A stretch of 64,000 nt of DNA from Candidatus Saccharimonadales bacterium (GTDB taxonomy: Bacteria; Patescibacteriota; Saccharimonadia; Saccharimonadales; UBA10212). The stretch lies in assembly GCA_040900055.1 (NCBI GenBank), contig JBBDZU010000007.1, positions 104,435-168,434 on the forward strand. The letters are read 5' to 3'. This document shows positions 3,073 to 62,555 of this stretch, piece by piece. Both the position numbers and the translations under genes were made by a program. The notes below the pieces were generated by a model. The model was not told the DNA's origin. It searched no databases and worked only from the letters and a program-made list of their open reading frames with translations. The number at the start of each line of letters is the position of its first letter. Position 1 is the stretch's first letter.

Positions 3073-4113
3073 ATGAGCAAGGAAGTTGTTTTAACAGGAT
3101 TACGCTCTAATGATGAGTTTCACCTGGGCAATTATTTGGGAGCCATCCTGCCGATGGTTGAGCTTCAGAAAAAGCATGCCGGGGAATATCAGCTTCACAT
3201 GTTCATTCCGGATCTTCACAGTTTTACTACACCGATTGATCACAGCAAACTATTTGCCCAAACCATCGATAATTTAAAGGTCTTCGTAGCTGCTGGGCTC
3301 GACATTAATAATCCAAATACCCTTATATATCGGCAAAGCTACATCCCGGCCCATTCCGAAATGACCTGGATTTTGAACTGTTTTTCATACTTCGGCGAGC
3401 TGTCTAGAATGACTGAGTTCAAAGATAAGTCATCTAAGTCAGATAGCGAGAATATTTCTGCTGGCCTGTTTACTTATCCTGTGTTGATGGCGGCTGATAT
3501 CTTGCTTTACGACGCCAAATGGATACCAGTTGGCGACGACCAGCGCCAACACCTAGAGTTTACGCGAAACCTAGCTATTCGCATGAACAACAAGTTCGGA
3601 AAGCTGTTTGTAGTCCCAGAAGATAGCCCCAAGCAACAAAAATTTTCCAACAGAACCGAGTCGGTGCGAATTCGGTCGCTACGAAACCCAGACAAGAAAA
3701 TGAGTAAGTCGATAGAGGACCCAGCCGGTACGATATTACTATCCGATACACCCGAGGCTGCCTCCAAGAAGGTAATGGAAGCAACTACCGACTCGGTAGG
3801 AGTCGTACATTACGACTGGGAAAAGCAGCCCGGTATAACAAACCTTATGCAGATACTTGACTTGTTAAATAATTCAGCGGGCATTGCTAAAAAGTGGGAA
3901 GGCAAAACTAGCTACGGCGACCTCAAGACCGAAGTAGCCTCAGCCGTCAATGACTTCATGCGTGGACTGCAAAGCAAGCTAGCCCAAATTGACGAAGCTA
4001 AGCTTATAAAGAAATTAGAAAAAGACGAAGAAACCATGAGCCAACTGGCTAGTGCCAAATTGCTCAAAGTCCAACAAGCCGTAGGTCTAAGGCCAAAAGC
4101 CATAAAGCACTGA
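3073..4113 (+). CDS. trpS: Tryptophan--tRNA ligase
   Basis: Class I HIGH-like motif (FHLGNYLG) and KMSKS motif are present, with TrpS-like length. ATG 3073 is preferred over TTG 3064. Confidence 0.85.
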   Translation: MSKEVVLTGLRSNDEFHLGNYLGAILPMVELQKKHAGEYQLHMFIPDLHSFTTPIDHSKLFAQTIDNLKVFVAAGLDINNPNTLIYRQSYIPAHSEMTWILNCFSYFGELSRMTEFKDKSSKSDSENISAGLFTYPVLMAADILLYDAKWIPVGDDQRQHLEFTRNLAIRMNNKFGKLFVVPEDSPKQQKFSNRTESVRIRSLRNPDKKMSKSIEDPAGTILLSDTPEAASKKVMEATTDSVGVVHYDWEKQPGITNLMQILDLLNNSAGIAKKWEGKTSYGDLKTEVASAVNDFMRGLQSKLAQIDEAKLIKKLEKDEETMSQLASAKLLKVQQAVGLRPKAIKH

Positions 4114-4994
4114 TGCAGGAGTTCTTGGCATCCAAAGCCGACAACGGCCAAAGAGCCGATGTAGTAGTCGCTACCAAGTACCCGGAATTTACCCGGTCAT
4201 CCTTAGAGACTTTGTTCGATAAAAAAATGGTCCGTCTTGGCAACCTGCCCATAAAACCATCCAAGAAGATTGCCGCTGGCGATAAGTTAATAATCGACGA
4301 AAGTTACCTACGCATAAAACCACTGCCGATAAAATTGCCGATTATCTATGAAGATAATGACGTAATTGTAGTTAATAAGCCGGCTGGCATTTTAACTCAT
4401 TCTAAAGGCGCCATAAACTTTGAAGCTACGGTGGCTAGCTTTATCGCATCCAAAATTAACGATAAGGCGATGACTGGCAACCGGGCAGGTATTGTGCATC
4501 GTTTAGATAGAGCCACAAGCGGTGTGATTATCTGCGCCAAGAACTTAAAGTCGTTAACGCTGCTTCAAAGGCAATTTGCTAAAAGAAAAACCAAGAAAAC
4601 CTACTTGGCTATTGTTGAAGGCAGGGTCTCACCGCCTGTAGCCATAATCGACGTCCCCATAGAGCGTAACCCAAAAAACCCCAGGTCGTTTAAAGTCGGT
4701 GCTAAAGGGCGTCAGGCTCAAACACGTTATAAGACTATAAAAACATTTGACGGCCCTTTGGGTTCCTACACCTATTTGGAGGTTTCTCCAATTACAGGGC
4801 GGACTCATCAAATCCGGGTGCATTTGGCCTATCTAAAGCACCCAATAGTAGGAGATAATGTCTACGGATCTGTCGGCGAGCACCTACTATTACACGCTGC
4901 TTCGCTTGAAATTACTTTGCCAAGCAAAGAACGTAAACGCTTCACTGCTGCCATCCCGAAACAATTTAAAGAGTTCATAAACGCACATGCCTAA
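4113..4994 (+). CDS. RluA-family (RluD-like) 23S rRNA pseudouridine synthase with S4-like N-terminal domain
   Basis: HRLDRATSGVIICAK catalytic-Asp motif and VVNKPAGI motif. Confidence 0.8.
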   Translation: MQEFLASKADNGQRADVVVATKYPEFTRSSLETLFDKKMVRLGNLPIKPSKKIAAGDKLIIDESYLRIKPLPIKLPIIYEDNDVIVVNKPAGILTHSKGAINFEATVASFIASKINDKAMTGNRAGIVHRLDRATSGVIICAKNLKSLTLLQRQFAKRKTKKTYLAIVEGRVSPPVAIIDVPIERNPKNPRSFKVGAKGRQAQTRYKTIKTFDGPLGSYTYLEVSPITGRTHQIRVHLAYLKHPIVGDNVYGSVGEHLLLHAASLEITLPSKERKRFTAAIPKQFKEFINAHA

Positions 4995-5868
4995 GGATAT
5001 GTTGCTCAATCCACAAACCGCCTTAGCCGTTAAGAATTACCTTAGCGCGCCCTCGCATGCCTTGCTAATTTGTGGACCAGCTGGAGCCGGTAAAGCTTAT
5101 CTTGCCAAGCTGATTAGCGCCCAGCTTCTTAAAGTGTCGCCTCAGAAAGTTCTAAGCCACCCATCCGTTATTCATTTGACAAAGCCGGACGATAAGCAGG
5201 AAATTGCTATCGACGAAGTTAGAAGGCTAATTCGTACACTTAGGTTAAAAGCCCCGGGCGACGCAGATGTTAGGCGAGTTGTTTTGGTAGAGGACGCTAA
5301 TTTTCTTAGTCTGCCTGCCCAAAACGCTCTACTCAAAATCCTAGAAGAGCCAGATTTACAGACAGTCTTCCTTCTAACTTCGCCCTCTGAAACTTACGTC
5401 TTACCTACTACCGCTTCCAGAGCTCAGAAATTAATTGTCCATCCCGTCTCTCTTGCCCAATCCCTTAAGCATTACGACGCTAGACACTCCAAAGCGTCCG
5501 TTGAAAGCTCTTGGAGGCTCAGCGGTGGGCAAGCTGGCCTGCTAGACGCTTTATTAGAAAACCAATCCGAGCATCCTCTAAAAAAAGCTGTTGACTTAGC
5601 TAAATCTTGGCTTGGTCAGTCAAGATACGAGAGGCTATTATTTTTTGATAAATTAGCCAGCAATAAAATAGAGCTCGCTTATTTTATAGAAGGCCTCAGT
5701 AAGGTCTTGGCCGCACTTCATCATAGCTATATTGCAAAAGGAGGCTCTAAACCAGCCACTGCGCTGCTGCATTCGCGTAAACTAGTTGACGAAGCCGGAA
5801 GCGCACTAGACGTAAACGTTAACCCTAAGCTGGTTGGCCTATATTTAGCAACTCACCTCAAGGTGTAG
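4987..5868 (+). CDS. holB: DNA polymerase III delta-prime subunit-like AAA+ protein
   Basis: LLICGPAGAGKAYLAK Walker A motif and a clamp-loader-like box VII region. Delta-prime size. Confidence 0.7.
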   Translation: MPKDMLLNPQTALAVKNYLSAPSHALLICGPAGAGKAYLAKLISAQLLKVSPQKVLSHPSVIHLTKPDDKQEIAIDEVRRLIRTLRLKAPGDADVRRVVLVEDANFLSLPAQNALLKILEEPDLQTVFLLTSPSETYVLPTTASRAQKLIVHPVSLAQSLKHYDARHSKASVESSWRLSGGQAGLLDALLENQSEHPLKKAVDLAKSWLGQSRYERLLFFDKLASNKIELAYFIEGLSKVLAALHHSYIAKGGSKPATALLHSRKLVDEAGSALDVNVNPKLVGLYLATHLKV

Positions 5869-15406: not shown

Positions 15407-15543
15407 ATTAGGAGTCTTGCCAGGGGTAGTCTTGGTATGTTAGATTAATAGAGTGAACCAAAGACAGTAGCTTCCGTCGGTTGACGGATTAATTTAGAAA
15501 AGTTAAGGCTACCGAGGTAATCTCTTGAATAGTCTTTGGTATA

Positions 15544-15571
15544 TGCCAAAGATTTTTTATTTGGCATTTTT
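15544..15571 (+). promoter_or_regulatory. AT-rich hairpin plus T-run in rplJ leader (possible L10 leader/attenuator)
   Basis: tgccaaa-gatttttta-tttggca followed by ttttt, immediately 5' of the rplJ SD. Confidence 0.3.
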
Positions 15572-47536: not shown

Positions 47537-48637
47537 GTGTCTAAGAGACAAACATCTAAGCAAATCAGTGATCGGTTGAGCTACTGGCTATGGGGCAGCC
47601 TCTGGCGTCGGGCAGGGTTGATTCTTGTAATGATAGTTTTGGTGTGGTTTGCCATGATGTGGCTGGTGGCACAGTGGTATATTGCCAAACACAACGATGA
47701 GCCGCTGGTTCTTGGGACAACTTATATATCAGATTACGCCGAAAGCTTAGGCTTAGAGCCCAAGGAAACGCTAGAAGCCATTCTGGACGATTTAAATATG
47801 AAACACATTCGGCTGGTAAGTTATTGGAAAGAAATAGAGTCTACTCCTGGGATTTATGATTTTTCTAACCTAGATTGGCAGTTTGATATGGCCGAAGATT
47901 ACGGTGCCGAGGTTTCGCTAGCCATAGGCCTTCGCCAACCGCGCTGGCCTGAATGCCACGAACCTCGCTGGGTGAGGCAACTTTCTAAACAGCAGTGGCA
48001 GCCCCAGCTTTATAAATTTATTGGCGCCACCATTGACCGCTATAAAAATCACCCCTCACTGGTAAGCTACCAACTGGAAAACGAATTTTTTATGAAGGTT
48101 TTTGGCGAATGTACCGACTTTGATCGCCAGCGCTTAACTTCCGAGTTGGAGCTTGTAAAGACTCATGACCCTGACCATCGGGTAATTATTAGCCGTTCTA
48201 ATAATTGGATTGGCTTGCCGATAGGCCAACCGCGGCCAGACCAATTTGGCATATCGGTTTATAAACGGGTGTGGGACAAAACTGTAACCAAACGCTACTT
48301 TGAATATCCGCTCCCCAGTTGGTTTTATGGCTTCTTGGCCGGCGCCGGAGAGCTTTTGACTGGCAAAGACATGATGATACATGAACTGCAAGCCGAACCG
48401 TGGCCTCCGCAAGATATTCGTAAAGCTCCCTTACAGGAACTTTATAAGTCCATGGACGCAAAGCGACTTAAAGACAGGATTGATTACGGCAAAGCTACTG
48501 GCATGCGGACCATCGAGCTTTGGGGTGCCGAGTGGTGGTATTGGCTGAAAGAGAAAGCCGGTGACGACAGCGTTTGGGATGTAGTCATGCAAGAAGTAGC
48601 CGAGTCAGCCAGCCGCGTGGCGCGCCCATCAGAGTAA
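47537..48637 (+). CDS. Membrane-anchored TIM-barrel glycoside hydrolase (GH-A clan-like)
   Basis: N-terminal TM helix and an NEF-containing segment YQLENEF reminiscent of the clan GH-A acid/base. Family unassigned. Confidence 0.5.
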   Translation: MSKRQTSKQISDRLSYWLWGSLWRRAGLILVMIVLVWFAMMWLVAQWYIAKHNDEPLVLGTTYISDYAESLGLEPKETLEAILDDLNMKHIRLVSYWKEIESTPGIYDFSNLDWQFDMAEDYGAEVSLAIGLRQPRWPECHEPRWVRQLSKQQWQPQLYKFIGATIDRYKNHPSLVSYQLENEFFMKVFGECTDFDRQRLTSELELVKTHDPDHRVIISRSNNWIGLPIGQPRPDQFGISVYKRVWDKTVTKRYFEYPLPSWFYGFLAGAGELLTGKDMMIHELQAEPWPPQDIRKAPLQELYKSMDAKRLKDRIDYGKATGMRTIELWGAEWWYWLKEKAGDDSVWDVVMQEVAESASRVARPSE

Positions 48638-49914: not shown

Positions 49915-50652
49915 ATGACTAAAGCCCCAAGCATCAAGACACATAGGCCGTTTGCGGTCTTTGATATAGACGGAACCATTATTCGCTGGCAGCTTTACCA
50001 CGCCATCGCCGATGCCTTGGCTAAAAAAGGGCTGGTTGATACCATAGCCTATCAAGCAGTCCGCGACGCTCGCATGTCATGGAAGAGGCGGACAGACACA
50101 GATTCGTTTAAAACATATGAGCAGCACCTTGTGGGATTTTACAATCAGCTGCTGGAAAACTTGAGTGTCAGTCATTTTACAGAGGCAGCAGATGCCGTGT
50201 TTGACGAATATAAAGACCAGGTTTATGTTTACAGCCGGGATTTAATCAGGCAATTAAAAAAGAAAAATTACCTGCTAATTGCCTTAAGTGGGTCACAGTC
50301 CGAAATAGTTGAAAAAATAGCCAATTACTACGGGTTTGATGATTATATCGGCACAACTTATGAACGAAGCGGTAAATATTTTACAGGTACGATGATTTTG
50401 CACTTGGGCAAGAAAGACGAAGTGCTAAAAAAACTAATCAAGCGTCATCAGGCTACGAGTAGCAAAAGCATAGGGATAGGTGATAGCGCCAGCGACATAT
50501 CCATGTTGGAAGCAGTTGAGCAACCGATTGCCTTCAACCCAGAGATGAAGCTCTTTGAACACGCTAAAAGGAGGGGCTGGAAGATAGTTATCGAACGCAA
50601 AAATGTGATTTACGAGCTAGAACCAAGAAATGGCAGATACCAGCTGGCTTAG
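49915..50652 (+). CDS. HAD-IB family hydrolase (SerB-like)
   Basis: VFDIDGTI and GIGDSASDISMLEAV motifs. Confidence 0.7.
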   Translation: MTKAPSIKTHRPFAVFDIDGTIIRWQLYHAIADALAKKGLVDTIAYQAVRDARMSWKRRTDTDSFKTYEQHLVGFYNQLLENLSVSHFTEAADAVFDEYKDQVYVYSRDLIRQLKKKNYLLIALSGSQSEIVEKIANYYGFDDYIGTTYERSGKYFTGTMILHLGKKDEVLKKLIKRHQATSSKSIGIGDSASDISMLEAVEQPIAFNPEMKLFEHAKRRGWKIVIERKNVIYELEPRNGRYQLA

Positions 50653-51412
50653 ACAAACCGGTAATGAGCCGTTATTTGCTGACTTACTGTGGAGCCAGCC
50701 GGAAAATAAGAATCAGGCAGGAAAATTGTTGATACTTGGCGGCAATCTTCATGGCTTTAAAGCTGTGGCCGCAGCTCACCAGGCTGCGACAAAAGCCGGC
50801 GCTGGCGTGGTTAAGATACTATTGCCTGACGCTTTAAAGAAGCTTTTGGGTAAGAGCTTTGGAGAAGCCGAGTTTACCTCTAGCACAAGTGCTGGCAGCT
50901 TTAGCCGCGAAGCCTTGGCTTTATTTTTAGATGAGGCAGAATGGGCCGATGGAGTGCTCTTGGCAGGCGATTTCGGTAAAAACAGCGAGACTGCCATTTT
51001 GCTGGAATCATTCATTAACAAGCAATCGAGCCTGGTGGTGATGGTTGGAGATTCTTTGGACTATTTTGCAAACAGCCCAAAGCCGGCCCAAAACAATAAC
51101 ATTGTAGTAGTGGGCGACATTGCCAGACTTCAAAAAATAGCCAAACCAACCCTTATAAAACATAGCTTTGATTTACTGCAAATGGTTAACGCGTTAAGTA
51201 AATGGACTATGCAAGCCAATTTAAATATTTTGACCAGACATGCTGGCCAGATAATTACAGCCAGCCATGGGCGAATCAGCACCACACCAGCAAAAGAAGT
51301 ATCAGACTGGGAAGTTCAGTTAGCCGCTTACGCTAGCGTTTGGTGTATCCAGCATCCTCAAAAACCTTTCGAAGCCCTAACAACCGCCGCCTTCGGCTAC
51401 ACGAAGGAGTAG
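50630..51412 (+). CDS. Possible NAD(P)H-hydrate dehydratase (YjeF-C/carbohydrate-kinase-like)
   Basis: Gly-rich LILGGNLHGFKAVAAAHQAATKAGAGVV resembles the NnrD N-terminal motif. Weak. Confidence 0.45.
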   Translation: MADTSWLRQTGNEPLFADLLWSQPENKNQAGKLLILGGNLHGFKAVAAAHQAATKAGAGVVKILLPDALKKLLGKSFGEAEFTSSTSAGSFSREALALFLDEAEWADGVLLAGDFGKNSETAILLESFINKQSSLVVMVGDSLDYFANSPKPAQNNNIVVVGDIARLQKIAKPTLIKHSFDLLQMVNALSKWTMQANLNILTRHAGQIITASHGRISTTPAKEVSDWEVQLAAYASVWCIQHPQKPFEALTTAAFGYTKE

Positions 51413-51420
51413 GAACAATT

Positions 51421-51507
51421 GTGGTGGCGCCCGTCGGACTCGAACCGACATGAGGTTGCCCTCACGGGATTTTGAGTCCCGCGTGTCTACCAATTCCACC
51501 AGGGCGC
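51421..51507 (-). tRNA. tRNA-Leu (anticodon CAA), type II, CCA encoded
   Basis: The reverse complement is GGCGCCCTGGTGGAATTGGTAGACACGCGGGA-CTCAAAA-TCCCG...GGTTCGAGTCC...GGGCGCCACCA. Confidence 0.85.
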
Positions 51508-51611
51508 CGCACCATAGGTGTATCCAACTTCGCTGAAGCCACATTGGATTTCGCCTATATTTTATCAGAGTTTAAGGTGTTCATTGTACAATAAACAGGG
51601 ATAATTACGAT

Positions 51612-52850
51612 ATGGACCTAAAGTTAGACGACCACCCTGACCAATTTAGCGAATCCTTGCCGCTACCGCCTGAGCCTGGCCAACCAAAAGCGGTAGAGCC
51701 TCCTAGTGCAGCTAATCCCGCAGCCGACCTAATTAGAAAAAGGGTAGAGGATGCCTACCTGCAGGAGCCAGATGTCGCTGCAGAGGTTGCCGAAGTGACC
51801 TCCTTAAGCAAGAAATCTACCAAGTCCAAACACCAGCAGTTTATTTTAGAACTTACTGGCTCTGGTAAATCGCTTCCGGAAATTCAAGTAGCTTGGCACG
51901 AATATTATGCATCTTTGAGCGACTCTGAAAAACACCAAGTCTGGCAGGAGTTTTATGAAAGCCATTCAGAAAGTGCGAAGTTCCCTAAAGCAGAAAGGGC
52001 AAAGCCCGATAAATCGGCTCGCAAGCCAAAGCCAGCCGCCCACCGTCAGCCCACCGCAAGAGCTAGGCTTATGGGTTGGGGGCTTGGAGATTTGCGCGAT
52101 TCGGTCTTGGGCGATTTGCCATCAAGACCGGCTGTAAAAATTGCCCCTCATTGGCGATCGGCTGGCTTTGGGCTAGCCGTAGGCTTAATTGCTGTATTTA
52201 TTTTCTTGTTTAGTTTCTTTAATGAGCGCATCATTGCTCCCTTGATCCAGCCTAGTCGAACCGTTTCTAGTACACCCATTATCAATGCTGCAGTAGCCGG
52301 AAGCTTAGATCCTAAAATTATAATCCCTAAGATTAACGTAGAAATACCGGTAGTTTATGACGTTGGGACGATAGAAGAATCGGCGGTGTTAAAAGCTCTG
52401 GAAGGTGGAGTGGTCCACTACGCCGACACCGCTCAGCCTGGCCAAAACGGCAATACCGTAATTGTTGGCCACTCGTCTAATAACATTTTTAACAGTGGTA
52501 GGTATAAGTTTGCTTTTGTGCTACTGTCACGACTAGAGAAGGGCGATACTTTTTATCTACAAAAGGACGGCAAGCGCTTTACCTATCAAATCTATGATAA
52601 GAAAGTCATTAAGCCAACTGATGTCTCGGTGCTTGGGCAAACAGACAAGCCGGCTACAGCCAGCTTAATAACTTGCGATCCACCTGGCACTAGCACTAAC
52701 CGCTTAGTAGTAGTAGGCGAACAAATAAATCCTGACACAAAGGCTAACGCGCCTGCTGCTGGACAGGGAAGTTTAGCGTCGTCAACAAAAATCGTGCCGG
52801 GCAATGCTCCCACGCTATGGTCAAAAATTGCCTACTGGCTAAGCCGGTAA
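51612..52850 (+). CDS. Sortase (transpeptidase) with cytoplasmic N-terminal extension of about 190 aa
   Basis: Catalytic triad context: VIVGHSS (His), LITCDPPG (TLxTC Cys) and NRLVVV (Arg). One TM helix at about residue 195. Confidence 0.75.
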   Translation: MDLKLDDHPDQFSESLPLPPEPGQPKAVEPPSAANPAADLIRKRVEDAYLQEPDVAAEVAEVTSLSKKSTKSKHQQFILELTGSGKSLPEIQVAWHEYYASLSDSEKHQVWQEFYESHSESAKFPKAERAKPDKSARKPKPAAHRQPTARARLMGWGLGDLRDSVLGDLPSRPAVKIAPHWRSAGFGLAVGLIAVFIFLFSFFNERIIAPLIQPSRTVSSTPIINAAVAGSLDPKIIIPKINVEIPVVYDVGTIEESAVLKALEGGVVHYADTAQPGQNGNTVIVGHSSNNIFNSGRYKFAFVLLSRLEKGDTFYLQKDGKRFTYQIYDKKVIKPTDVSVLGQTDKPATASLITCDPPGTSTNRLVVVGEQINPDTKANAPAAGQGSLASSTKIVPGNAPTLWSKIAYWLSR

Positions 52851-54350
52851 CTAACGGCTACGCAGGGCTTCGGGCAGGTCGTTGCCGGCCCGCATATCGA
52901 TATCAATAAGTGTCTGAGTGTTGGCCGAACCTGTTTGCCTAATTACTAATAAATGGCGAACATCCCGGCTAAAATAGCCAAGGGGCGAAGCGGTCGCGCC
53001 AAGTAAATGGCTGTTGCTGCCGTCATAGTCGGAAATTAGCAAATTGCCGCCGGCTTGGCCTGCCCATCTAAACCCATCTAGCCAGCTCATGGGGCTGTTG
53101 AGCTTGGCCTCTAGCTGGTAGCGATAACTTTCTTCTAGCTCAACATCAAACACCAAAAACATTTGGCCAGACTGGGCACCAAAAAAACGGCCATTGTCAG
53201 AAACTGCCAAGCTGTTAGCCTCAATGTTTTGCAAAGCTAACATCGGTTGGGCCTTGGCCACCTTAGAGTCTTTTAAGGAGCTTAACGGGTCTTTATAAAT
53301 ACTTAGGCGCTCAGAGCCCTTTGCGCCAACCATGTAGTACCAATGGCTCTGATAGGTAGTTGCGGCCAGCAGCCAGTCGCTGTTAGCCTCCAAGGACGTT
53401 AGGCTGTAGGTTTGGCCATTATCCCAAATCCTGACGCTAAAGTTGCCCCCAATTGCTGGCGAGACATAAGTTAAAAGATTATTAGAAATCGCCTTAAAAG
53501 CTAAAACTTCTCTAATTACCGTGCCGGTAAGATTAGCGCTTTGGCGGTCGGCTAGGGCCAAGGTGGCGGCAGCTTTATCAAATATATAAAACTGGCCAAT
53601 TTTTTTATCGGCTAAAGCCACATCGTCAGCAGGCACCTTAAAAAGTTTATTGACGTTAAAGGACTGCGCTGGATCTGCCCTGTCAATAACAATAAACTCA
53701 TGGCCGGATCTGCCAGTATGTTTGACCAATAGGTGGCGGTTATCGGCGGCCCATTCGACTTCGGTAAATTTCGAACTTGAGCTGGCGTAGCCGGTCAAAA
53801 GTCCAACCGGTAGCGTTAGGCTTTGGGGCGGGTCACTTAAGTTATCGGTGTCGTAAAGATCAAAGCTGGGACGAGCTGGCACGCCTGCCGTACTCTCGAT
53901 TAGAAGCCATTTTAGGTTGGGGCTTTGGCTAAAGAGCTCAGGCATATCTTCGTAGCTTTTAATAGCTGTTTCAATTGGTGCGACAGGGAATAAAAACGGG
54001 TAAGCAAACCGGGCAACGCTATGTTCGTTCAATAGGAAGTTTCTTTGCCAATTTCGATAGCCTTCCTTGCTTAAAGTCAGGTAATAGCTGCCGGCTGGCA
54101 GGACTAGACGGGCGGCCGTATCGGCGTCTTTGTCTTGGCCGTTTAGGCTTATCTTAGCACCCGATGGCCTGGAATCGGCAAACAGCAAACCATTTTGAAC
54201 GACCTCGCCGGTTTTAGTGTTAATGCCGTATCCGTAGGCAGCATAAACTAAAATTATGGTAGCTAGTCCAATAGCGACACTCATTAAACCATAGCCAATC
54301 ATGAGCCGTATTTTGTGGGCACGCCTTTTTTGAGAGTCTAAATAATCCAT
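52851..54350 (-). CDS. Membrane-anchored PEGA-domain protein with large beta-rich extracytoplasmic domain
   Basis: N-terminal TM, a PEGA-like segment (RPSGAKISLNGQ...GSYYLTLSKEGYRNWQ), then about 380 aa predicted beta-rich. Confidence 0.55.
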   Translation of the reverse strand: MDYLDSQKRRAHKIRLMIGYGLMSVAIGLATIILVYAAYGYGINTKTGEVVQNGLLFADSRPSGAKISLNGQDKDADTAARLVLPAGSYYLTLSKEGYRNWQRNFLLNEHSVARFAYPFLFPVAPIETAIKSYEDMPELFSQSPNLKWLLIESTAGVPARPSFDLYDTDNLSDPPQSLTLPVGLLTGYASSSSKFTEVEWAADNRHLLVKHTGRSGHEFIVIDRADPAQSFNVNKLFKVPADDVALADKKIGQFYIFDKAAATLALADRQSANLTGTVIREVLAFKAISNNLLTYVSPAIGGNFSVRIWDNGQTYSLTSLEANSDWLLAATTYQSHWYYMVGAKGSERLSIYKDPLSSLKDSKVAKAQPMLALQNIEANSLAVSDNGRFFGAQSGQMFLVFDVELEESYRYQLEAKLNSPMSWLDGFRWAGQAGGNLLISDYDGSNSHLLGATASPLGYFSRDVRHLLVIRQTGSANTQTLIDIDMRAGNDLPEALRSR

Positions 54351-54502
54351 TCTTGTTAATTTAAGCTAACGGGCAGCGTTGGCATTGTCCCATATAATCA
54401 GCAAGCACTACAAGCCAAGTAAATCCCCTGAAATTTGCCAGGAAAACTCTGCGGGTGTAATATGGTTTTTATACTAAAAAGCTTGGGGCTGATAGCCGGT
54501 AA

Positions 54503-55672
54503 ATGAGAACAACTAGCGTCATAGAGATTAACGGCTATCGATACGACGCAGCTACCGGCAAGATAATTGGCGCTGTAAAAGATATAGCTGCTCACGTAAA
54601 AAATAGTTCCCCAGCTGGGATTATCGACGGCATAATTTATAACCCGGCAGTTGACCATAAACCAACTGCTAAGATTTCAAAGCCGGCAAAAGCTGAAGCT
54701 CCCAAGGCCGCTATTACTAGAAACCACCGAAAAAGACATATCTTCAAAAATAGCGCCTTAACGCTACATACTCGCGCCCAGCGTTCCAAAACATTGATGC
54801 GATCGACTATCGCTAAGCCCAAGGAGCGATTAAAAGATCTTACAGATGCGCCGGCGCAATCAGCTAAAACAAAATCCGTTGCTGTTAACCTGATACGTGA
54901 AAAAAGAGCCAAAGTGTTTAGAAAACATCCTAAGGTAGCGCGTTTTGGCGATTTCATAAATCGCACAGACCTCTCCGTAGACCAACCGGCCAAACAAGGC
55001 AAAGTCATATCTGCTGCCAGCCCAAAAATCGTGGCAAATCAAACAGCTAAGGCCGCAAGTAGTAACGTCCGGCCAATGCCGAGTATGGTGACTAGCGTCT
55101 CTCACCAGCATTTGGAGCGCTTATTAGATCGTGCTTTAGCATTAGCCGATTCCCACAAAAAAACCTTAAAAGAGGGGCTACCACGACGAAAAACCTTTAA
55201 ACGTTTTAAACTACTGCCGCGCTGGCTAACTTTGGGCTTAGTAGTTTTGGTTTTAGTAGCCGGCGCAATTTATTTTGCCTGGCAGAATGTTCCTGAAGCT
55301 GCCATGAAGATAGCTGCCGCCAGAGCCCAGGTTAACGCTAAAGTACCGGCCTATGAGCCCTCCGATTTCAAATTCGTAGGCCCCATTAGCTACGCTAACC
55401 ATTCGACCACAATTCGCTACCAAGCCCAAGGACAGCCGGCTAAAGCTTACGCCATCACTCAACAAGCCTCGAACCTAGACAGCGATTCTTTAGTATCAAA
55501 TGTAATAGGCCTAAATGCCCAAGTTCAAACTTCTCAAATTAACGGTATTAAAGTTTTTATCTACGGTCCATCAAATGACGCGACCTGGGTCAATAACGGT
55601 ATTTGGTATTCCATCAAAAACAATGCCGGCCTAACATCTGTCCAGCTACTAAAAATAGCCCAGAGTTTTTAG
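54503..55672 (+). CDS. Hypothetical bitopic membrane protein (basic cytoplasmic N-terminus, C-terminal extracytoplasmic domain)
   Basis: Lys/Arg-rich N-terminal 230 aa, one TM (LTLGLVVLVLVAGAIYFAW), and a C-terminal beta-rich domain. Confidence 0.5.
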   Translation: MRTTSVIEINGYRYDAATGKIIGAVKDIAAHVKNSSPAGIIDGIIYNPAVDHKPTAKISKPAKAEAPKAAITRNHRKRHIFKNSALTLHTRAQRSKTLMRSTIAKPKERLKDLTDAPAQSAKTKSVAVNLIREKRAKVFRKHPKVARFGDFINRTDLSVDQPAKQGKVISAASPKIVANQTAKAASSNVRPMPSMVTSVSHQHLERLLDRALALADSHKKTLKEGLPRRKTFKRFKLLPRWLTLGLVVLVLVAGAIYFAWQNVPEAAMKIAAARAQVNAKVPAYEPSDFKFVGPISYANHSTTIRYQAQGQPAKAYAITQQASNLDSDSLVSNVIGLNAQVQTSQINGIKVFIYGPSNDATWVNNGIWYSIKNNAGLTSVQLLKIAQSF

Positions 55673-57165: not shown

Positions 57166-58320
57166 ATGCCGATTAACAAAGAACCCGCCTCGTCTTTGGC
57201 TAAGAACCAAGCACCTAGCTCAACTTTAGGCCTGCGATCAAAAATTAAATTGTTGCCTCCACCTAAGCACTGGTGGCAAAAATGGCAAGGCCTGCCTAGA
57301 CGCTCCAAATTAATTGGAGGCTTAGCGGCAATTTTGCTAGTAGCGCTAGTCGGCTGGCTGCTTTGGCCTAAAGGGCCGGTGCCGTTGGCTAGCGCACCCG
57401 AAGCTAAAGTTGTAGAGCCGACTACTCTGCCGTCTCCGCTCACCGGCCTTCAAGTCGCCCGAGAATTAGCTAAAAGACCTGTCACGGCCATTATGATTGA
57501 GAACAGCTTGGCGGCCCGTCCGCAGTCCGGCATTGGGGAAGCCGGAGTGCTTTTTGAGGCTATCGCCGAGGGCGGCATTACGCGTTTTATAAGCTTATTC
57601 CAAGAAAGCCAGCCGACTTATATTGGACCCGTTAGAAGCCTAAGACCATATTATATCGATTGGGCCAGAGCCTTTGATGCCGGCATTGCCCACATTGGTG
57701 GCAGCCCCGAAGCCCTAGAGCAAATTCGAGGTGGAGCCGCCAAAGATTTGGATCAGTTTTTTAACCCTGGCAGCTATTGGCGGCAAGCCGGGCGCGCGTC
57801 TCCACACAATGTCTATACCAGTTTTGAAAAACTAGATGCCCTTAACAGAGCGAAGGGTTACACGACTAGTAAGTTTGCAAGCTGGTCGCGTAAAGCCGAC
57901 GCCGCACTGGCCACACCAACTGCTAAAGCCATTAATTTAACCGTAAGCAGTACCAACTATAATGTCCACTACGATTACGATGCATCGACAAACAGTTACT
58001 TGCGCAGCCAAGGCGGCAGGCCACACATTGCTACCACCTCGCCATCAGACGCTAATGGACAGCAGCTGAAGCCAAAGATCGTTATAGCCATGGTTATACC
58101 TTATAATCTTGCCGGTAGGTATAGTAGTTATGGCGTAAGTAGCGGGGGCGGGGTGATTGTATTCCAAGATGGCGGCGTGACCACAGGAACCTGGAGTAAA
58201 GCTGACAGAGCTAGCCAATTTGTCTTTAAGGATGCCGCTGGCAAACCCTTAACCTTTAATGCCGGTCAGGCATGGGTGACAGTTTTAGCTGACGCCAACA
58301 GGATTAGCTACACCCCATAG
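57166..58320 (+). CDS. DUF3048-family secreted/anchored protein
   Basis: N-terminal TM, then RPQSGIGEAGVLFEAIAEGGITRFISLF typical of DUF3048. Confidence 0.6.
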   Translation: MPINKEPASSLAKNQAPSSTLGLRSKIKLLPPPKHWWQKWQGLPRRSKLIGGLAAILLVALVGWLLWPKGPVPLASAPEAKVVEPTTLPSPLTGLQVARELAKRPVTAIMIENSLAARPQSGIGEAGVLFEAIAEGGITRFISLFQESQPTYIGPVRSLRPYYIDWARAFDAGIAHIGGSPEALEQIRGGAAKDLDQFFNPGSYWRQAGRASPHNVYTSFEKLDALNRAKGYTTSKFASWSRKADAALATPTAKAINLTVSSTNYNVHYDYDASTNSYLRSQGGRPHIATTSPSDANGQQLKPKIVIAMVIPYNLAGRYSSYGVSSGGGVIVFQDGGVTTGTWSKADRASQFVFKDAAGKPLTFNAGQAWVTVLADANRISYTP

Positions 58321-60508: not shown

Positions 60509-61714
60509 GTGTGGTTAAGAAAGAAGAGTAAAGCAGCTGAAGCGAAGTCAGATGGTCGCCTGACCTCCGATTTTATTTTAGAAGCCATCGAAGATGGTGT
60601 TGTCGTGGTTGGTAGCAGAGGCGAGATTGAGCTATACAATCGGGCAGCTACTAAGATTTCTGGCTGGCCAGCCGCCGAGGCCATCGGTTTAGACTACCGA
60701 AGCGTTTTACCCATGTTAGACGAGAAAGGCCAGCCAAAGCCTGCCGGTAACCACCCGTTTGCACAAGTATTTGCACAAGGCAAAGTCGTACGTGACCCTA
60801 ACGGGCTACTCTCAACACGCTCTTCAAAACAATTGCCCATATCCATGATTGCTTCGCCGTTAGCCGGTAGTGGTGGGCAAGGGGTCGCCAAGGTGATCGG
60901 GGTTTTTCGAGATGTTTCGAAAGAAAAAGCCGATGAGGCCAGACGCTCCGAATTTATTAGCACTGCCTCACACGAAATGCGCACCCCGTTAGCCGCCATC
61001 GAGGGGTACCTATCCCTAGCTCTAAACGAAAAAATTGCTAAGGTAGACTCTAACGCCCGAAAATATGTCGAGAAGGCCTCGGCTGCCACTAAGCACTTAG
61101 GGATATTGTTTGCCGACTTATTGACTAGTTCGCGGGCCGAGGATGGCCGCTTAGTCAGCTATCCGACCGTTATAGAAATTGGTGAAACCATTGCCCAAGT
61201 AGTGGAAGCCGAACGCTTTAGAGCCAAAGAGCGGGGGCTGGAACTTAACTACCTGGTCAGCAGCGATAAAGACGTAGCTGGCGGCTTGGTAGTCCGGCCG
61301 ACTTATTATGTTTTTGCCGACCCGCACCGTATAGCCGAAGTCCTACAAAATCTTATCGATAATGCCATTAAATACACCAGTACCGGAGCCATAAGCGTGC
61401 GGCTAACTGGGAATAGTTCGGTCGCCCAGATTCAAGTCAGCGATACCGGCGCTGGCATCCCGGCCGAAGATATTCCCCATTTGTTCCAAAAGTTTTACCG
61501 AGTCGATAACACTGCTACCAGGACAGTGGGCGGAACCGGCCTGGGGCTGTTTATTTGCCGCAAGATTATAGAACTTTATAACGGTAAAATTTGGGTAGAA
61601 AGCCAGCTAGGCAAAGGCAGCACGTTCTTCATTAACCTACCGAGGCTAACCTCCGAGCAGGCCTTGAATATGCAAAGAAAAAAAGCTTCCATCATTAGTC
61701 CAATGGAGCCTTAA
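60509..61714 (+). CDS. Cytoplasmic PAS-domain sensor histidine kinase
   Basis: PAS-like N-terminus, HisKA FISTASHEMRTPLAAIEGY, and HATPase motifs DNAIKYT and DTGAGIP..GTGLGL. No TM segment. Confidence 0.8.
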   Translation: MWLRKKSKAAEAKSDGRLTSDFILEAIEDGVVVVGSRGEIELYNRAATKISGWPAAEAIGLDYRSVLPMLDEKGQPKPAGNHPFAQVFAQGKVVRDPNGLLSTRSSKQLPISMIASPLAGSGGQGVAKVIGVFRDVSKEKADEARRSEFISTASHEMRTPLAAIEGYLSLALNEKIAKVDSNARKYVEKASAATKHLGILFADLLTSSRAEDGRLVSYPTVIEIGETIAQVVEAERFRAKERGLELNYLVSSDKDVAGGLVVRPTYYVFADPHRIAEVLQNLIDNAIKYTSTGAISVRLTGNSSVAQIQVSDTGAGIPAEDIPHLFQKFYRVDNTATRTVGGTGLGLFICRKIIELYNGKIWVESQLGKGSTFFINLPRLTSEQALNMQRKKASIISPMEP

Positions 61715-61763
61715 GGGACAAAGTTGATTTTAAAATGAAGCATAAGCGTATAAAATAGTCGAT

Positions 61764-62555
61764 ATGCCCAAAGTATTATTGGTAGAAGACGACACTAACC
61801 TTAGGGAGATCTTTGAGATGCGCCTGGTGGCTGAAGGCTACCAGACGGTCACAGCCAGTAACGGTGAAGAGGCCTTAGCCGTAGCTATGAAAGAAAAACC
61901 TGATCTTATTGTGGCCGACATTATGATGCCCAGGCTGTCTGGATTTGAGATGCTGGAAACATTGCGATCCGCTCCAGAGATGAGCCAGGTTAAAGTGGTA
62001 ATGATGACTGCTCTCGGCCAGGAAGAGGACAGGGCTCGCGGCGAAAAGCTTGGCGTGGTAAAATATCTAGTGAAATCCCAAGTAACTTTGGAAGATTTCA
62101 CCCGCGCCGTTAAAGAAGTATTGCCGGTAGGGCAATCGCCTTTGACTCCAGGCAAGGGGGATCAATCAGCCAATTTTAAAGAGGCAAACATTAAAGAAAG
62201 CGAGATCAACATGCCAGACGACACAACATCACCAACCAATTCGCCGGCACCAGAGCCTGTAGCTGACGAAGCCAGCACTAACCCAATTACTGGAGGGACT
62301 GCCGGTTCCGACAGCATGGGTGACCAGGCCCAAACAACCGCTCAAGAACAAGGTGTAGTAAATGACCAGATAAATGATTTTGCCGGTACCCCGCCAGCCG
62401 ATAGCTCAGCTGCCGGCAATCCGCCAATGGAGCCATCGGCTCCGGCCATGCCGCAGGACGACCCCGGGCAATCTTCTATACCGGTAACTCCACCGCCAGC
62501 CGACGAGCCTACTGCCGAGACTAGCGGCGATTCAAACGCACCAGCCACTCCTTAG
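61764..62555 (+). CDS. REC-only response regulator with disordered Pro/Thr/Ala/Asp-rich tail of about 140 aa
   Basis: VLLVEDD...DLIVADIMMP...VVMMTA receiver motifs are present. The tail is low-complexity and has no output domain. Confidence 0.8.
   Translation: MPKVLLVEDDTNLREIFEMRLVAEGYQTVTASNGEEALAVAMKEKPDLIVADIMMPRLSGFEMLETLRSAPEMSQVKVVMMTALGQEEDRARGEKLGVVKYLVKSQVTLEDFTRAVKEVLPVGQSPLTPGKGDQSANFKEANIKESEINMPDDTTSPTNSPAPEPVADEASTNPITGGTAGSDSMGDQAQTTAQEQGVVNDQINDFAGTPPADSSAAGNPPMEPSAPAMPQDDPGQSSIPVTPPPADEPTAETSGDSNAPATP

Follow-up and report, generated by a model that had tools for sequence, protein, structure and literature searches.

We analyzed a 64-kb window (the term is used here for the whole stretch of DNA) from a metagenome-assembled genome (MAG) of Candidatus Saccharimonadales (Saccharibacteria/TM7, Patescibacteria, in the candidate phyla radiation, CPR), and we describe a three-gene locus at positions 51612-55672 that codes for a sortase with a long cytoplasmic N-terminal region, for a membrane-anchored protein combining a PEGA domain with a β-propeller, and for a bitopic membrane protein of the DUF4367 family. 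The reading that we favor, with moderate confidence, is that of a lineage-specific housekeeping sortase with the PEGA-propeller protein as its probable partner and the DUF4367-family protein as an accessory. Saccharibacteria are obligate epibionts, in which surface proteins decide host attachment and survival, and the sortase gene and PEGA gene syntenic with those of the window are both essential in the one Saccharibacterium for which transposon sequencing (Tn-seq) data exist.

The three open reading frames (ORFs) were verified with the coordinates and strands given by a first-pass annotation made from the sequence alone, and they are arranged as follows.

51612..52850, + strand: sortase gene, 412 aa, assigned to a Saccharibacteria-specific subfamily
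52851..54350, - strand: gene of the PEGA + β-propeller protein, 499 aa, membrane-anchored; convergent with the sortase gene, the stop codons abutting
54351..54502, no strand: divergent intergenic region of 152 bp between the PEGA and DUF4367-family genes
54503..55672, + strand: gene of the DUF4367-family bitopic membrane protein, 389 aa

Each protein has many full-length homologs (120 matches listed for the sortase and 120 for the PEGA protein, all with E < 1e-130, and 54 with E ≤ 7e-20 for the third), and therefore the three ORFs are real genes rather than chance ORFs. A single hydrophobic segment was detected by hydropathy in each of them (residues 181-212 in the sortase, 14-43 in the PEGA protein and 235-264 in the third protein), and the basic flank that precedes this segment in all three indicates an orientation with the N-terminus inside and the C-terminus outside the cell.

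The sortase: catalytic domain, class and cytoplasmic region

The Pfam model Sortase (PF04203) matched residues 236-370 of the window sortase with an E-value of 6.7e-28 (97.4 bits, cut-off 26.6), and the TIGR01076 model was also passed (77.2, cut-off 39.35). The catalytic residues, described as intact in the first-pass annotation, are indeed present as His287 (VIVGHSS), Cys355 (LITCDPPG) and Arg364 (NRLVVV); they showed no variation across 21 aligned family members and were kept in distant ones. When the AlphaFold2 (AF2) model of the protein was compared with the PDB by Foldseek, the 50 matches listed were all sortases, with target-normalised TM-scores of 0.52-0.76, and the catalytic domain was modeled with moderate quality (predicted local distance difference test, pLDDT, of 40-83 per 10-residue block). 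The window sortase hence looks catalytically intact. A tblastn search found no second sortase in the window. The organization of the protein is summarized below; TM stands for transmembrane.

51708..51977, + strand: N-domain, residues 33-122; conserved acidic cytoplasmic five-helix domain
51978..52151, + strand: linker, residues 123-180; variable, basic, Pro/Ala/Lys/Arg-rich, cytoplasmic
52152..52310, + strand: TM helix and juxtamembrane segment, residues 181-233; from hydropathy, with FGL..G.I...IFLFSFFNER and IAPFIQPSR...
52311..52727, + strand: catalytic domain, residues 234-372; 79% mean identity, His287/Cys355/Arg364, and matches in Pfam, TIGRFAM and PDB
52794..52850, + strand: C-tail, residues 395-412, and stop codon; 53% mean identity, predicted short amphipathic helix

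Scoring against the class-specific models, which the first-pass annotation had proposed as a check, gave no class assignment to the enzyme, which the Pfam and TIGR01076 models place in the sortase superfamily (peptidase C60). The scores were 75.6 bits for class C (NF033745, cut-off 160), 56.3 for class D (NF033746, cut-off 165), 55.4 for the SrtD exception model (cut-off 140), 55.5 for class E (NF033747, cut-off 160), 34.9 for class F (NF033748, cut-off 166) and 26.1 for class GN (TIGR03784, cut-off 158.25). Because these class scores fall below their cut-offs, the name 'class D sortase', carried by the NCBI protein of this taxon that is 100% identical to the window sortase, is not supported by these models. 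The nearest PDB enzymes, both by sequence profile and by fold, belong to class C and then, closely, to class E, at about 25-30% identity and with near-equal E-values; they are the class C sortases C. perfringens SrtC (6ixz, 7d6t), A. oris SrtC-1 (2xwg) and group B Streptococcus (GBS) SrtC1, with E-values of ~1e-12 to 1e-13, and the class E sortases S. coelicolor SrtE1 and T. fusca SrtE, with E-values of 2e-11 to 3e-11. The stretch between the TM helix and strand β-1 was inspected for the DP[FWY] lid and held no conserved motif, the Asp of the 'LDPK' found in the window protein not being conserved. Judged by sequence, the enzyme represents a newly delimited, Saccharibacteria-specific subfamily that falls outside the cut-offs of the class C, D, E, F and GN models.

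The long cytoplasmic N-terminus reported in the first-pass annotation is a real and conserved part of the protein, being present in all of the 120 homologs listed, whose lengths range from 389 to 428 aa and which align with 91-100% of the query. A mis-called start was ruled out by this coverage and by the fact that the alignment begins at the same Met. The description of the whole region as Pro/Ala/Lys-rich held only for the linker (residues 123-180), which shows 18% mean identity, a net charge of +9, a pI of 11.4 and AF2 pLDDT values below 50, and it did not hold for the two acidic parts that precede it. Residues 1-32 form a variable acidic tail (32% mean identity, net charge -5), and residues 33-122 form a helical domain, termed here the N-domain, with 59% mean identity, a net charge of -6 and the family consensus NPAADLIRK...AAY..EP ... 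SKHQQFI.ELT.SGKSL.EIQ.AWHEYYA.L.D.EKHQVWQEFY. AF2 predicted its helices at residues 36-50, 55-66, 73-83, 88-101 and 104-121, with pLDDT values of 55-87 per 10-residue block. Beyond the linker, the TM helix (181-205) and the juxtamembrane segment (206-233, IAPFIQPSR) show mean identities of 58% and 54%, respectively, with invariant columns within F200-R216, and the variable C-linker (373-394) that follows the catalytic domain shows 39%.

A profile search with the N-domain among 1.84 billion representative proteins returned 169 clusters, essentially all of them N-termini of this sortase family. The catalytic-Cys motif of sortases is present in the full-length matches examined (380-600 aa), the three that were scanned with Pfam all match Sortase, and the shorter matches probably derive from fragmented genes on short contigs. 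The other architecture encountered was a single 139-aa protein with the domain after two hydrophobic segments. Compared with Pfam, the N-domain produced only chance-level matches (MqsR, spectrin); Pfam and NCBIfam scans of the full-length sortase found nothing on it, and the PDB profile search matched the catalytic domain alone. Family members at a far greater distance (L081, L083, P0400) have also retained the N-domain. Because the homologs are full length, the mean identity is much higher than in the linker, the domain is kept in distant members and it is confined to this family, we consider the N-domain to be real and under selection, and on sequence criteria it constitutes an undescribed domain family, which is now delimited. 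Separately, the N-domain profile (ELT.SGKS..EIQ..W..YY..L...EKH.VW.EF) matched 8-9 repeats in P0418 (1536 aa), a nematode polyprotein allergen (NPA/ABA-1, PF16469), and in P0438 (7139 aa); these were rejected as homologs of the N-domain, as they probably reflect helical-repeat convergence.

The closest precedent for such a region is S. coelicolor SrtE1 (class E; 5cuw; Kattke et al. 2016, PMC5148588), likewise a type II enzyme with a cytoplasmic N-terminal extension of 100-200 aa, which according to its authors is absent from nearly all other sortases (PMC5148588). Ahead of the TM helix, that extension passes from an acidic into a basic region, and function in vivo depends on its first ~80 residues (PMC5148588). 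The acidic-then-basic order is shared by SrtE1 and the window sortase, and their catalytic domains match by sequence and by fold. In contrast, the sequence of the SrtE1 extension varies considerably, whereas the window family keeps the acidic part of its extension well conserved, as a helical domain; no homology between the two extensions could be detected, and no full-length N-domain match examined lies outside the window sortase family. SrtE1 recognizes LAXTG in its substrates. The 'cytoplasmic regulatory input' put forward in the first-pass annotation remains conjectural, the in vivo requirement for the SrtE1 extension being its sole precedent.

At the other end of the protein, 41 diverse family representatives share the consensus [LIV]P[GS]N[GSA]P[ST]LWxR for the C-tail. 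A true TM helix followed by an Arg/Lys tail comes after it in 3 of these 41 (P0347, P0360, P0396) and in L081 (L081:4264-5541), and the window sortase has, by hydropathy, a single TM segment and no C-terminal TM anchor. A C-terminal TM helix with a basic tail is a hallmark of class C sortases. Our preferred reading of the C-tail is that of an interfacial helix standing in for a second, class C-like membrane anchor. The C-tail also resembles a degenerate LPXTG motif, and the minority of enzymes with a TM helix and a basic tail carry the full tripartite layout of a sorting signal on the sortase itself; the significance of this LPxNG-like appearance and of the sorting-signal-like layout is unproven.

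The PEGA-propeller and DUF4367-family proteins

For the 499-aa anchored protein, the first-pass annotation had expected a PEGA domain together with a β-propeller or a β-sandwich, and the AF2 model (mean pLDDT 88.2; predicted TM-score, pTM, 0.81) agrees with it in showing a PEGA sandwich followed by a seven-bladed propeller, organized as listed below.

54237..54335, - strand: signal-anchor helix, residues 6-38; AF2 helix, hydropathy and basic N-flank
54006..54230, - strand: PEGA (prealbumin-like) β-sandwich, residues 41-115; PF08308 and AF2
52896..53975, - strand: seven-bladed β-propeller, residues 126-485; AF2 and Foldseek

The PF08308 model matched residues 56-114 with an E-value of 2.5e-9 (37.4 bits, cut-off 20.8) and was matched as well in all 30 homologs scanned. 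The propeller consists of 29 strands, i.e. seven blades of four strands and one closing strand. Foldseek returned 977 PDB matches at E ≤ 0.001, and the top 50 listed were nearly all propellers. The best fold match over both domains was Leptospira Lp49 (3bws), with an E-value of 9.8e-11 over 472 aligned columns, and WD40-type propellers followed. Lp49 consists of an N-terminal Ig/prealbumin-like domain and a seven-bladed propeller. Although it is the top fold match, its identity to the PEGA protein is 12% and the TM-score 0.39-0.45, and because Lp49 lacks an assigned function the match yields no mechanism. Pfam and NCBIfam scans recognized no sequence family in the protein beyond PEGA, and a PDB search with the profile of its family came back empty. 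The C-terminus of the protein (...RAGxDLP) was considered as a cryptic sorting signal and rejected, there being no conserved T/G after the LP and no hydrophobic tail.

The third protein comprises a basic cytoplasmic region (residues 1-234), a TM helix (235-264) and an ectodomain (~265-389). The highly basic cytoplasmic N-terminus and single TM helix attributed to it in the first-pass annotation were both recovered, its N-terminal 235 residues having a pI of 11.0 (49 Lys and Arg versus 17 Asp and Glu), and the ectodomain is of the DUF4367 type. PF14285 (DUF4367) matched 18 of 20 aligned homologs (best E-value 8e-10), and most database homologs carry a precomputed PF14285 assignment; the window copy itself had no match at E ≤ 0.1. 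A PDB profile search with this protein returned nothing meaningful. In the cytoplasmic half, conserved motifs were found (IEING..YDA.TG, QRSKTLMR..V.KP and SHQ.LERLLD.AL..A.AHK), and Pfam, NCBIfam and PDB profile searches detected no known domain. The idea of a domain common to this half and the sortase N-domain was rejected on an hhalign probability of 0.1%. The 152-bp region that separates the divergent PEGA and DUF4367-family genes is presumably a shared promoter region. A single sigma-70-like match (54435-54463) lies within it and is not above chance, and a scan of the locus for promoters and terminators gave no excess over the shuffled expectation.

Linkage of the genes and essentiality in Southlakia epibionticum

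Gene order was compared in 80 genome loci taken around the closest homologs of the window sortase, all of them from Saccharibacteria MAGs. A homolog of the PEGA protein was present in 80/80 loci, lying within 600 bp of the sortase gene in 76 and convergent with it in 78, and a DUF4367-family gene adjoins the PEGA gene in all of the 75 loci in which the contig reaches that far. The neighbors are thus conserved with the sortase, which was one of the points on which the first-pass annotation had staked its proposal. At the upstream junction, between the sortase gene and a YjeF-like gene, more than 600 bp intervene in 35 of 63 loci, and the downstream junction between the DUF4367-family gene and gltX is intact in 66 and broken in 8 of 74. 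The trio is kept in the divergent lineages L081, L083/L084, L088 and L091, and the pairing of sortase and PEGA genes survives broken downstream synteny in L083, L088 and L091. In L087 (L087:161-3444), the sortase has 599 aa and the PEGA gene is co-directional with it, its ATG overlapping the sortase stop codon (TAATG); we take this overlap as the strongest genomic hint that the two genes are coupled. Elsewhere, in L091 (L091:7692-8714), mreB is inserted between the PEGA-propeller and DUF4367-family genes, which may hint at a link to the machinery of cell-wall growth.

The only experimental data for such a locus come from the Tn-seq study of Southlakia epibionticum ML1 grown on Actinomyces israelii (Wang et al. 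2023, Cell, PMC10633639, Tables S1/S2), in which calls are given as T0/T1/T2 (NE, non-essential; GD, growth defect; ES, essential; GA, growth advantage). The corresponding genes are the following.

SEML1_0330: YjeF-like, in the same order as in the window
SEML1_0328: tRNA-Leu, NE/GD/GD
SEML1_0327: sortase, 448 aa, Sortase domain 267-403, GD/ES/ES
SEML1_0326: PEGA protein, 490 aa, PEGA 56-116, GD/ES/ES
SEML1_0325: DUF4367 protein, 350 aa, DUF4367 244-350, NE/NE/NE

The order YjeF-like gene, tRNA-Leu, long sortase, PEGA and DUF4367 is the same in Southlakia and in the window, the differences being a PKD-domain gene inserted beside the Southlakia tRNA and the orientation of the tRNA. In the window, the tRNA gene is the following feature, and it serves as a synteny marker because the Southlakia sortase gene also adjoins a tRNA-Leu gene.

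51422..51508, - strand: tRNA-Leu(CAA), directly upstream of the sortase gene; ARAGORN and Rfam tRNA

Normalised reads fell from 455 to 149 and then to 85 in the sortase gene and from 79 to 26 and then to 18 in the PEGA gene, and they stayed at ~4,100-5,700 in the DUF4367 gene (PMC10633639). Both SEML1_0327 and SEML1_0326 are 'class II essential' under the definition used in that study and are flagged as core, Patescibacteria-enriched families (PMC10633639). The same genome encodes a second, short 'class E sortase' of 199 aa, SEML1_0711, which is non-essential with a growth-advantage call (NE/GA/GA; PMC10633639), and these opposite calls indicate that the long and the short sortase differ in role. 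By ECOD assignment, the PEGA domain of SEML1_0326 belongs to e3bwsA1 and the ectodomain of SEML1_0325 to an RseB-C-terminal-like domain (PMC10633639). The study concludes that multiple adhesins are required for epibiotic growth, and neither 'sortase' nor 'PEGA' occurs in its main text (PMC10633639). Taken together, the close spacing in 76 of 80 loci, the retention in divergent lineages, the TAATG overlap in L087 and the identical calls and flags in Southlakia suggest that the sortase and the PEGA-propeller protein are coupled, physically or functionally. The earlier view of the trio as one unit stands insofar as all three genes are recurrently linked, and it does not stand insofar as the divergent PEGA/DUF4367 pair inverts as one unit in L060 and L063, and can part from the sortase gene, and as essentiality differs among the three Southlakia genes.

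Substrates, alternative explanations and proposed roles

Sorting signals were sought in the window, in 84 related loci (~1.1 Mb) and in ~10 kb past the window edges. No genuine ORF of the window combines an LPXTG-like motif, a hydrophobic stretch and a basic tail, only spurious antisense ORFs doing so, in agreement with the earlier statement that the substrate lies outside the window. Apart from one protein, these scans returned only the C-termini of the sortases themselves, and no consensus for a substrate motif could be derived from them. The one protein, a 255-aa DUF11 protein encoded 5 kb upstream of the sortase gene in L030 (L030:896-1663, - strand), has a signal peptide, LVNTG, a hydrophobic/TM stretch and KVK; it has no homologs in the other related loci.

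Several observations weigh against a sortase-PEGA partnership. The Southlakia genes are inferred to be orthologous to those of the window from gene order, lengths and domain coordinates rather than from alignment, and the essentiality of both genes would be expected of many envelope genes in an obligate epibiont and is no proof of a common pathway. Taken as a whole, the sortase was modeled poorly by AF2 (mean pLDDT 59), and no substrate turned up, the L030 protein being the sole sorting-signal-like neighbor in the ~1.1 Mb of related loci. The main rival reading is that the sortase works alone, with the PEGA and DUF4367-family genes forming a separate envelope module, or being two unrelated genes, in a frozen gene order, a reading that we regard as somewhat unlikely and yet as a serious competitor. 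Synteny extends over the whole 10-kb neighborhood (74 of the 80 loci have gltX, 63 the YjeF-like gene, 58 exoIII and 56 DUF3048), so that adjacency by itself is weak evidence of common function, and the DUF4367-family gene/gltX junction is also stable. Furthermore, the convergent orientation bars co-transcription of the sortase and PEGA genes in the 78 loci that have it, the gap between them reaches 5.1 kb in L063, 2.8 kb in L006, 1.3 kb in L060 and 1.1 kb in L044, and the PEGA/DUF4367 pair can invert alone. In L089 a GH3 (NagZ-like) gene (1819-2961, - strand), convergent to the sortase gene, takes the place of PEGA; in L090 (L090:1662-3031) there is no PEGA gene at the locus and a frameshift breaks the DUF4367 gene in two, gene calls being fragmented generally along that contig. 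The dispensability of the DUF4367 gene next to two essential genes in Southlakia would fit independent neighbors too. Nevertheless, the sortase-PEGA junction is steadier than the upstream junction and outlives broken downstream order, as in L083, the co-directional stop/start overlap in L087 is typical of translationally coupled partners, and in Southlakia both genes share the same Tn-seq class and are both 'core' and 'Patescibacteria-enriched'.

Two further explanations concern the function of the enzyme or of the locus. That the sortase is a class C-type, pilus-polymerising enzyme assembling a covalent surface fiber appears highly improbable, even though its best NCBIfam class score is that of class C, class C enzymes lead its PDB matches in both sequence and fold, and some family members retain the C-terminal TM helix and basic tail. 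The class C score is far under the cut-off, class E structures match almost equally well, the lid is not conserved and the window enzyme, unlike class C sortases, ends in an amphipathic tail. Neither in the window nor across the 80 loci is the sortase gene flanked by pilin-like or sorting-signal genes, and it is single-copy and stands in a housekeeping-gene context rather than in a pilus island. Moreover, none of the filaments known in Saccharibacteria is a sortase pilus, these being type IV pili and donor-strand-exchange Pam pili (PMC11623550), and the papers on these two kinds of pili do not involve the window locus. Nothing found here supports the suggestion of a pilus or S-layer assembly unit made in the first-pass annotation. 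Scarcely credible, in our view, is a transmembrane signalling unit in which the DUF4367 protein would act as an anti-sigma or sensor protein, with an RseB/LolA-like ectodomain, and the sortase N-domain would be its cytoplasmic partner. The architecture of the DUF4367 protein does resemble that of bitopic anti-sigma or sensor proteins, the ectodomain of its Southlakia counterpart falls in the RseB C-terminal ECOD group, and the charges of the two cytoplasmic regions are opposite (net -6 in the N-domain, pI 11 in the DUF4367-protein half). Against this, the searches of the cytoplasmic half recovered neither an anti-sigma domain (zf-HC2, RskA) nor any other known one, the locus has no neighboring sigma factor gene, the profile-profile comparison reveals no relation between the two cytoplasmic regions, and the DUF4367 gene is non-essential whereas the sortase gene is essential.

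Under the favored reading of a housekeeping sortase with a PEGA-propeller partner, the enzyme would be a type II membrane cysteine transpeptidase whose ectodomain carries His287/Cys355/Arg364. It would most likely cut secreted proteins, the products of genes located elsewhere in the genome, at their C-terminal sorting signals and join the cleaved proteins to peptidoglycan precursors or to the cell wall, candidate substrates being adhesins and the L030 DUF11 protein. The acidic N-domain, on its flexible basic tether, may position or regulate the sortase through cytoplasmic or membrane partners, as has been proposed for the SrtE1 extension, and the C-tail is probably a helix at the membrane interface, either a remnant of a second C-terminal membrane anchor or a replacement for it. 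The PEGA-propeller protein is predicted to face the same extracytoplasmic space and would be a probable partner of the sortase as a scaffold, a wall-binding protein or a substrate-handling factor, and the DUF4367-family protein would be an accessory, dispensable envelope protein sharing the divergent promoter region with the PEGA gene. A bolder combination of three proposals has, as a whole, little credence with us: that an essential machine for envelope assembly, specific to Saccharibacteria, would be made up of the long sortase and the PEGA-propeller protein, that the N-domain would tie surface-protein anchoring to a cue or landmark inside the cell (e.g. the site of division or growth, or the secretion machinery), and that the LPxNG-like C-tail would be a built-in pseudo-substrate or self-anchoring signal gating the active site.

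Sortases are usually dispensable for growth outside a few Actinobacteria. Actinomyces oris SrtA, essential like the Southlakia sortase, is one of the rare sortases on which viability depends (Wu et al. 2014), and its loss is reported to be lethal through the toxic accumulation in the membrane of one glycoprotein substrate; the essentiality of the Southlakia sortase may simply reflect the loss of host-binding adhesins in an obligate epibiont. The literature search returned no paper linking PEGA domains with sortases in CPR bacteria. The gene families of the locus were already annotated in public databases, and the essentiality data had been published and left uninterpreted; what is new is the sortase subfamily, its private helical N-domain and LPxNG-like C-tail, and its conserved, once operonic, pairing with an essential PEGA-propeller protein. 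We regard the locus as a testable lead for CPR envelope biology, and for the role of cytoplasmic extensions in sortases, rather than as a categorically new system. With its own conserved cytoplasmic domain, the subfamily provides a concrete starting point for studying how surface-protein anchoring might be placed or governed from the cytoplasm, a question already raised by SrtE1, and the sortase and the PEGA protein are lineage-specific, tractable points at which the epibiotic lifestyle could be dissected or inhibited. Should the genes prove unlinked, the lack of support for the 'class D sortase' annotation and the delimitation of the N-domain family would still be useful.

Several other genes and elements of the window were recorded. 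The YjeF-like gene upstream of the sortase gene (50630-51412, + strand), found there in the 63 loci given above, codes for a YjeF-C/carbohydrate-kinase-like protein that scored 22.4 bits against a Pfam cut-off of 27, and it corresponds by position to SEML1_0330. The DUF3048 gene (57166-58320, + strand), kept two genes downstream, after gltX, in the 56 loci that have it, encodes a membrane-anchored, extracytoplasmic protein with the N- and C-terminal domains of that family. A membrane-anchored protein with weak matches to glycoside-hydrolase TIM-barrels (GH42/GH2) is encoded at 47537-48637 (+ strand), and its gene lies upstream in ~20 of the 80 loci. Further away, a ribosomal protein L10 leader was detected at 15440-15568 (+ strand; Rfam RF00557, 50 bits), and a PAS-HisKA histidine kinase and response regulator pair is encoded downstream of the locus at 60509-62555 (+ strand).

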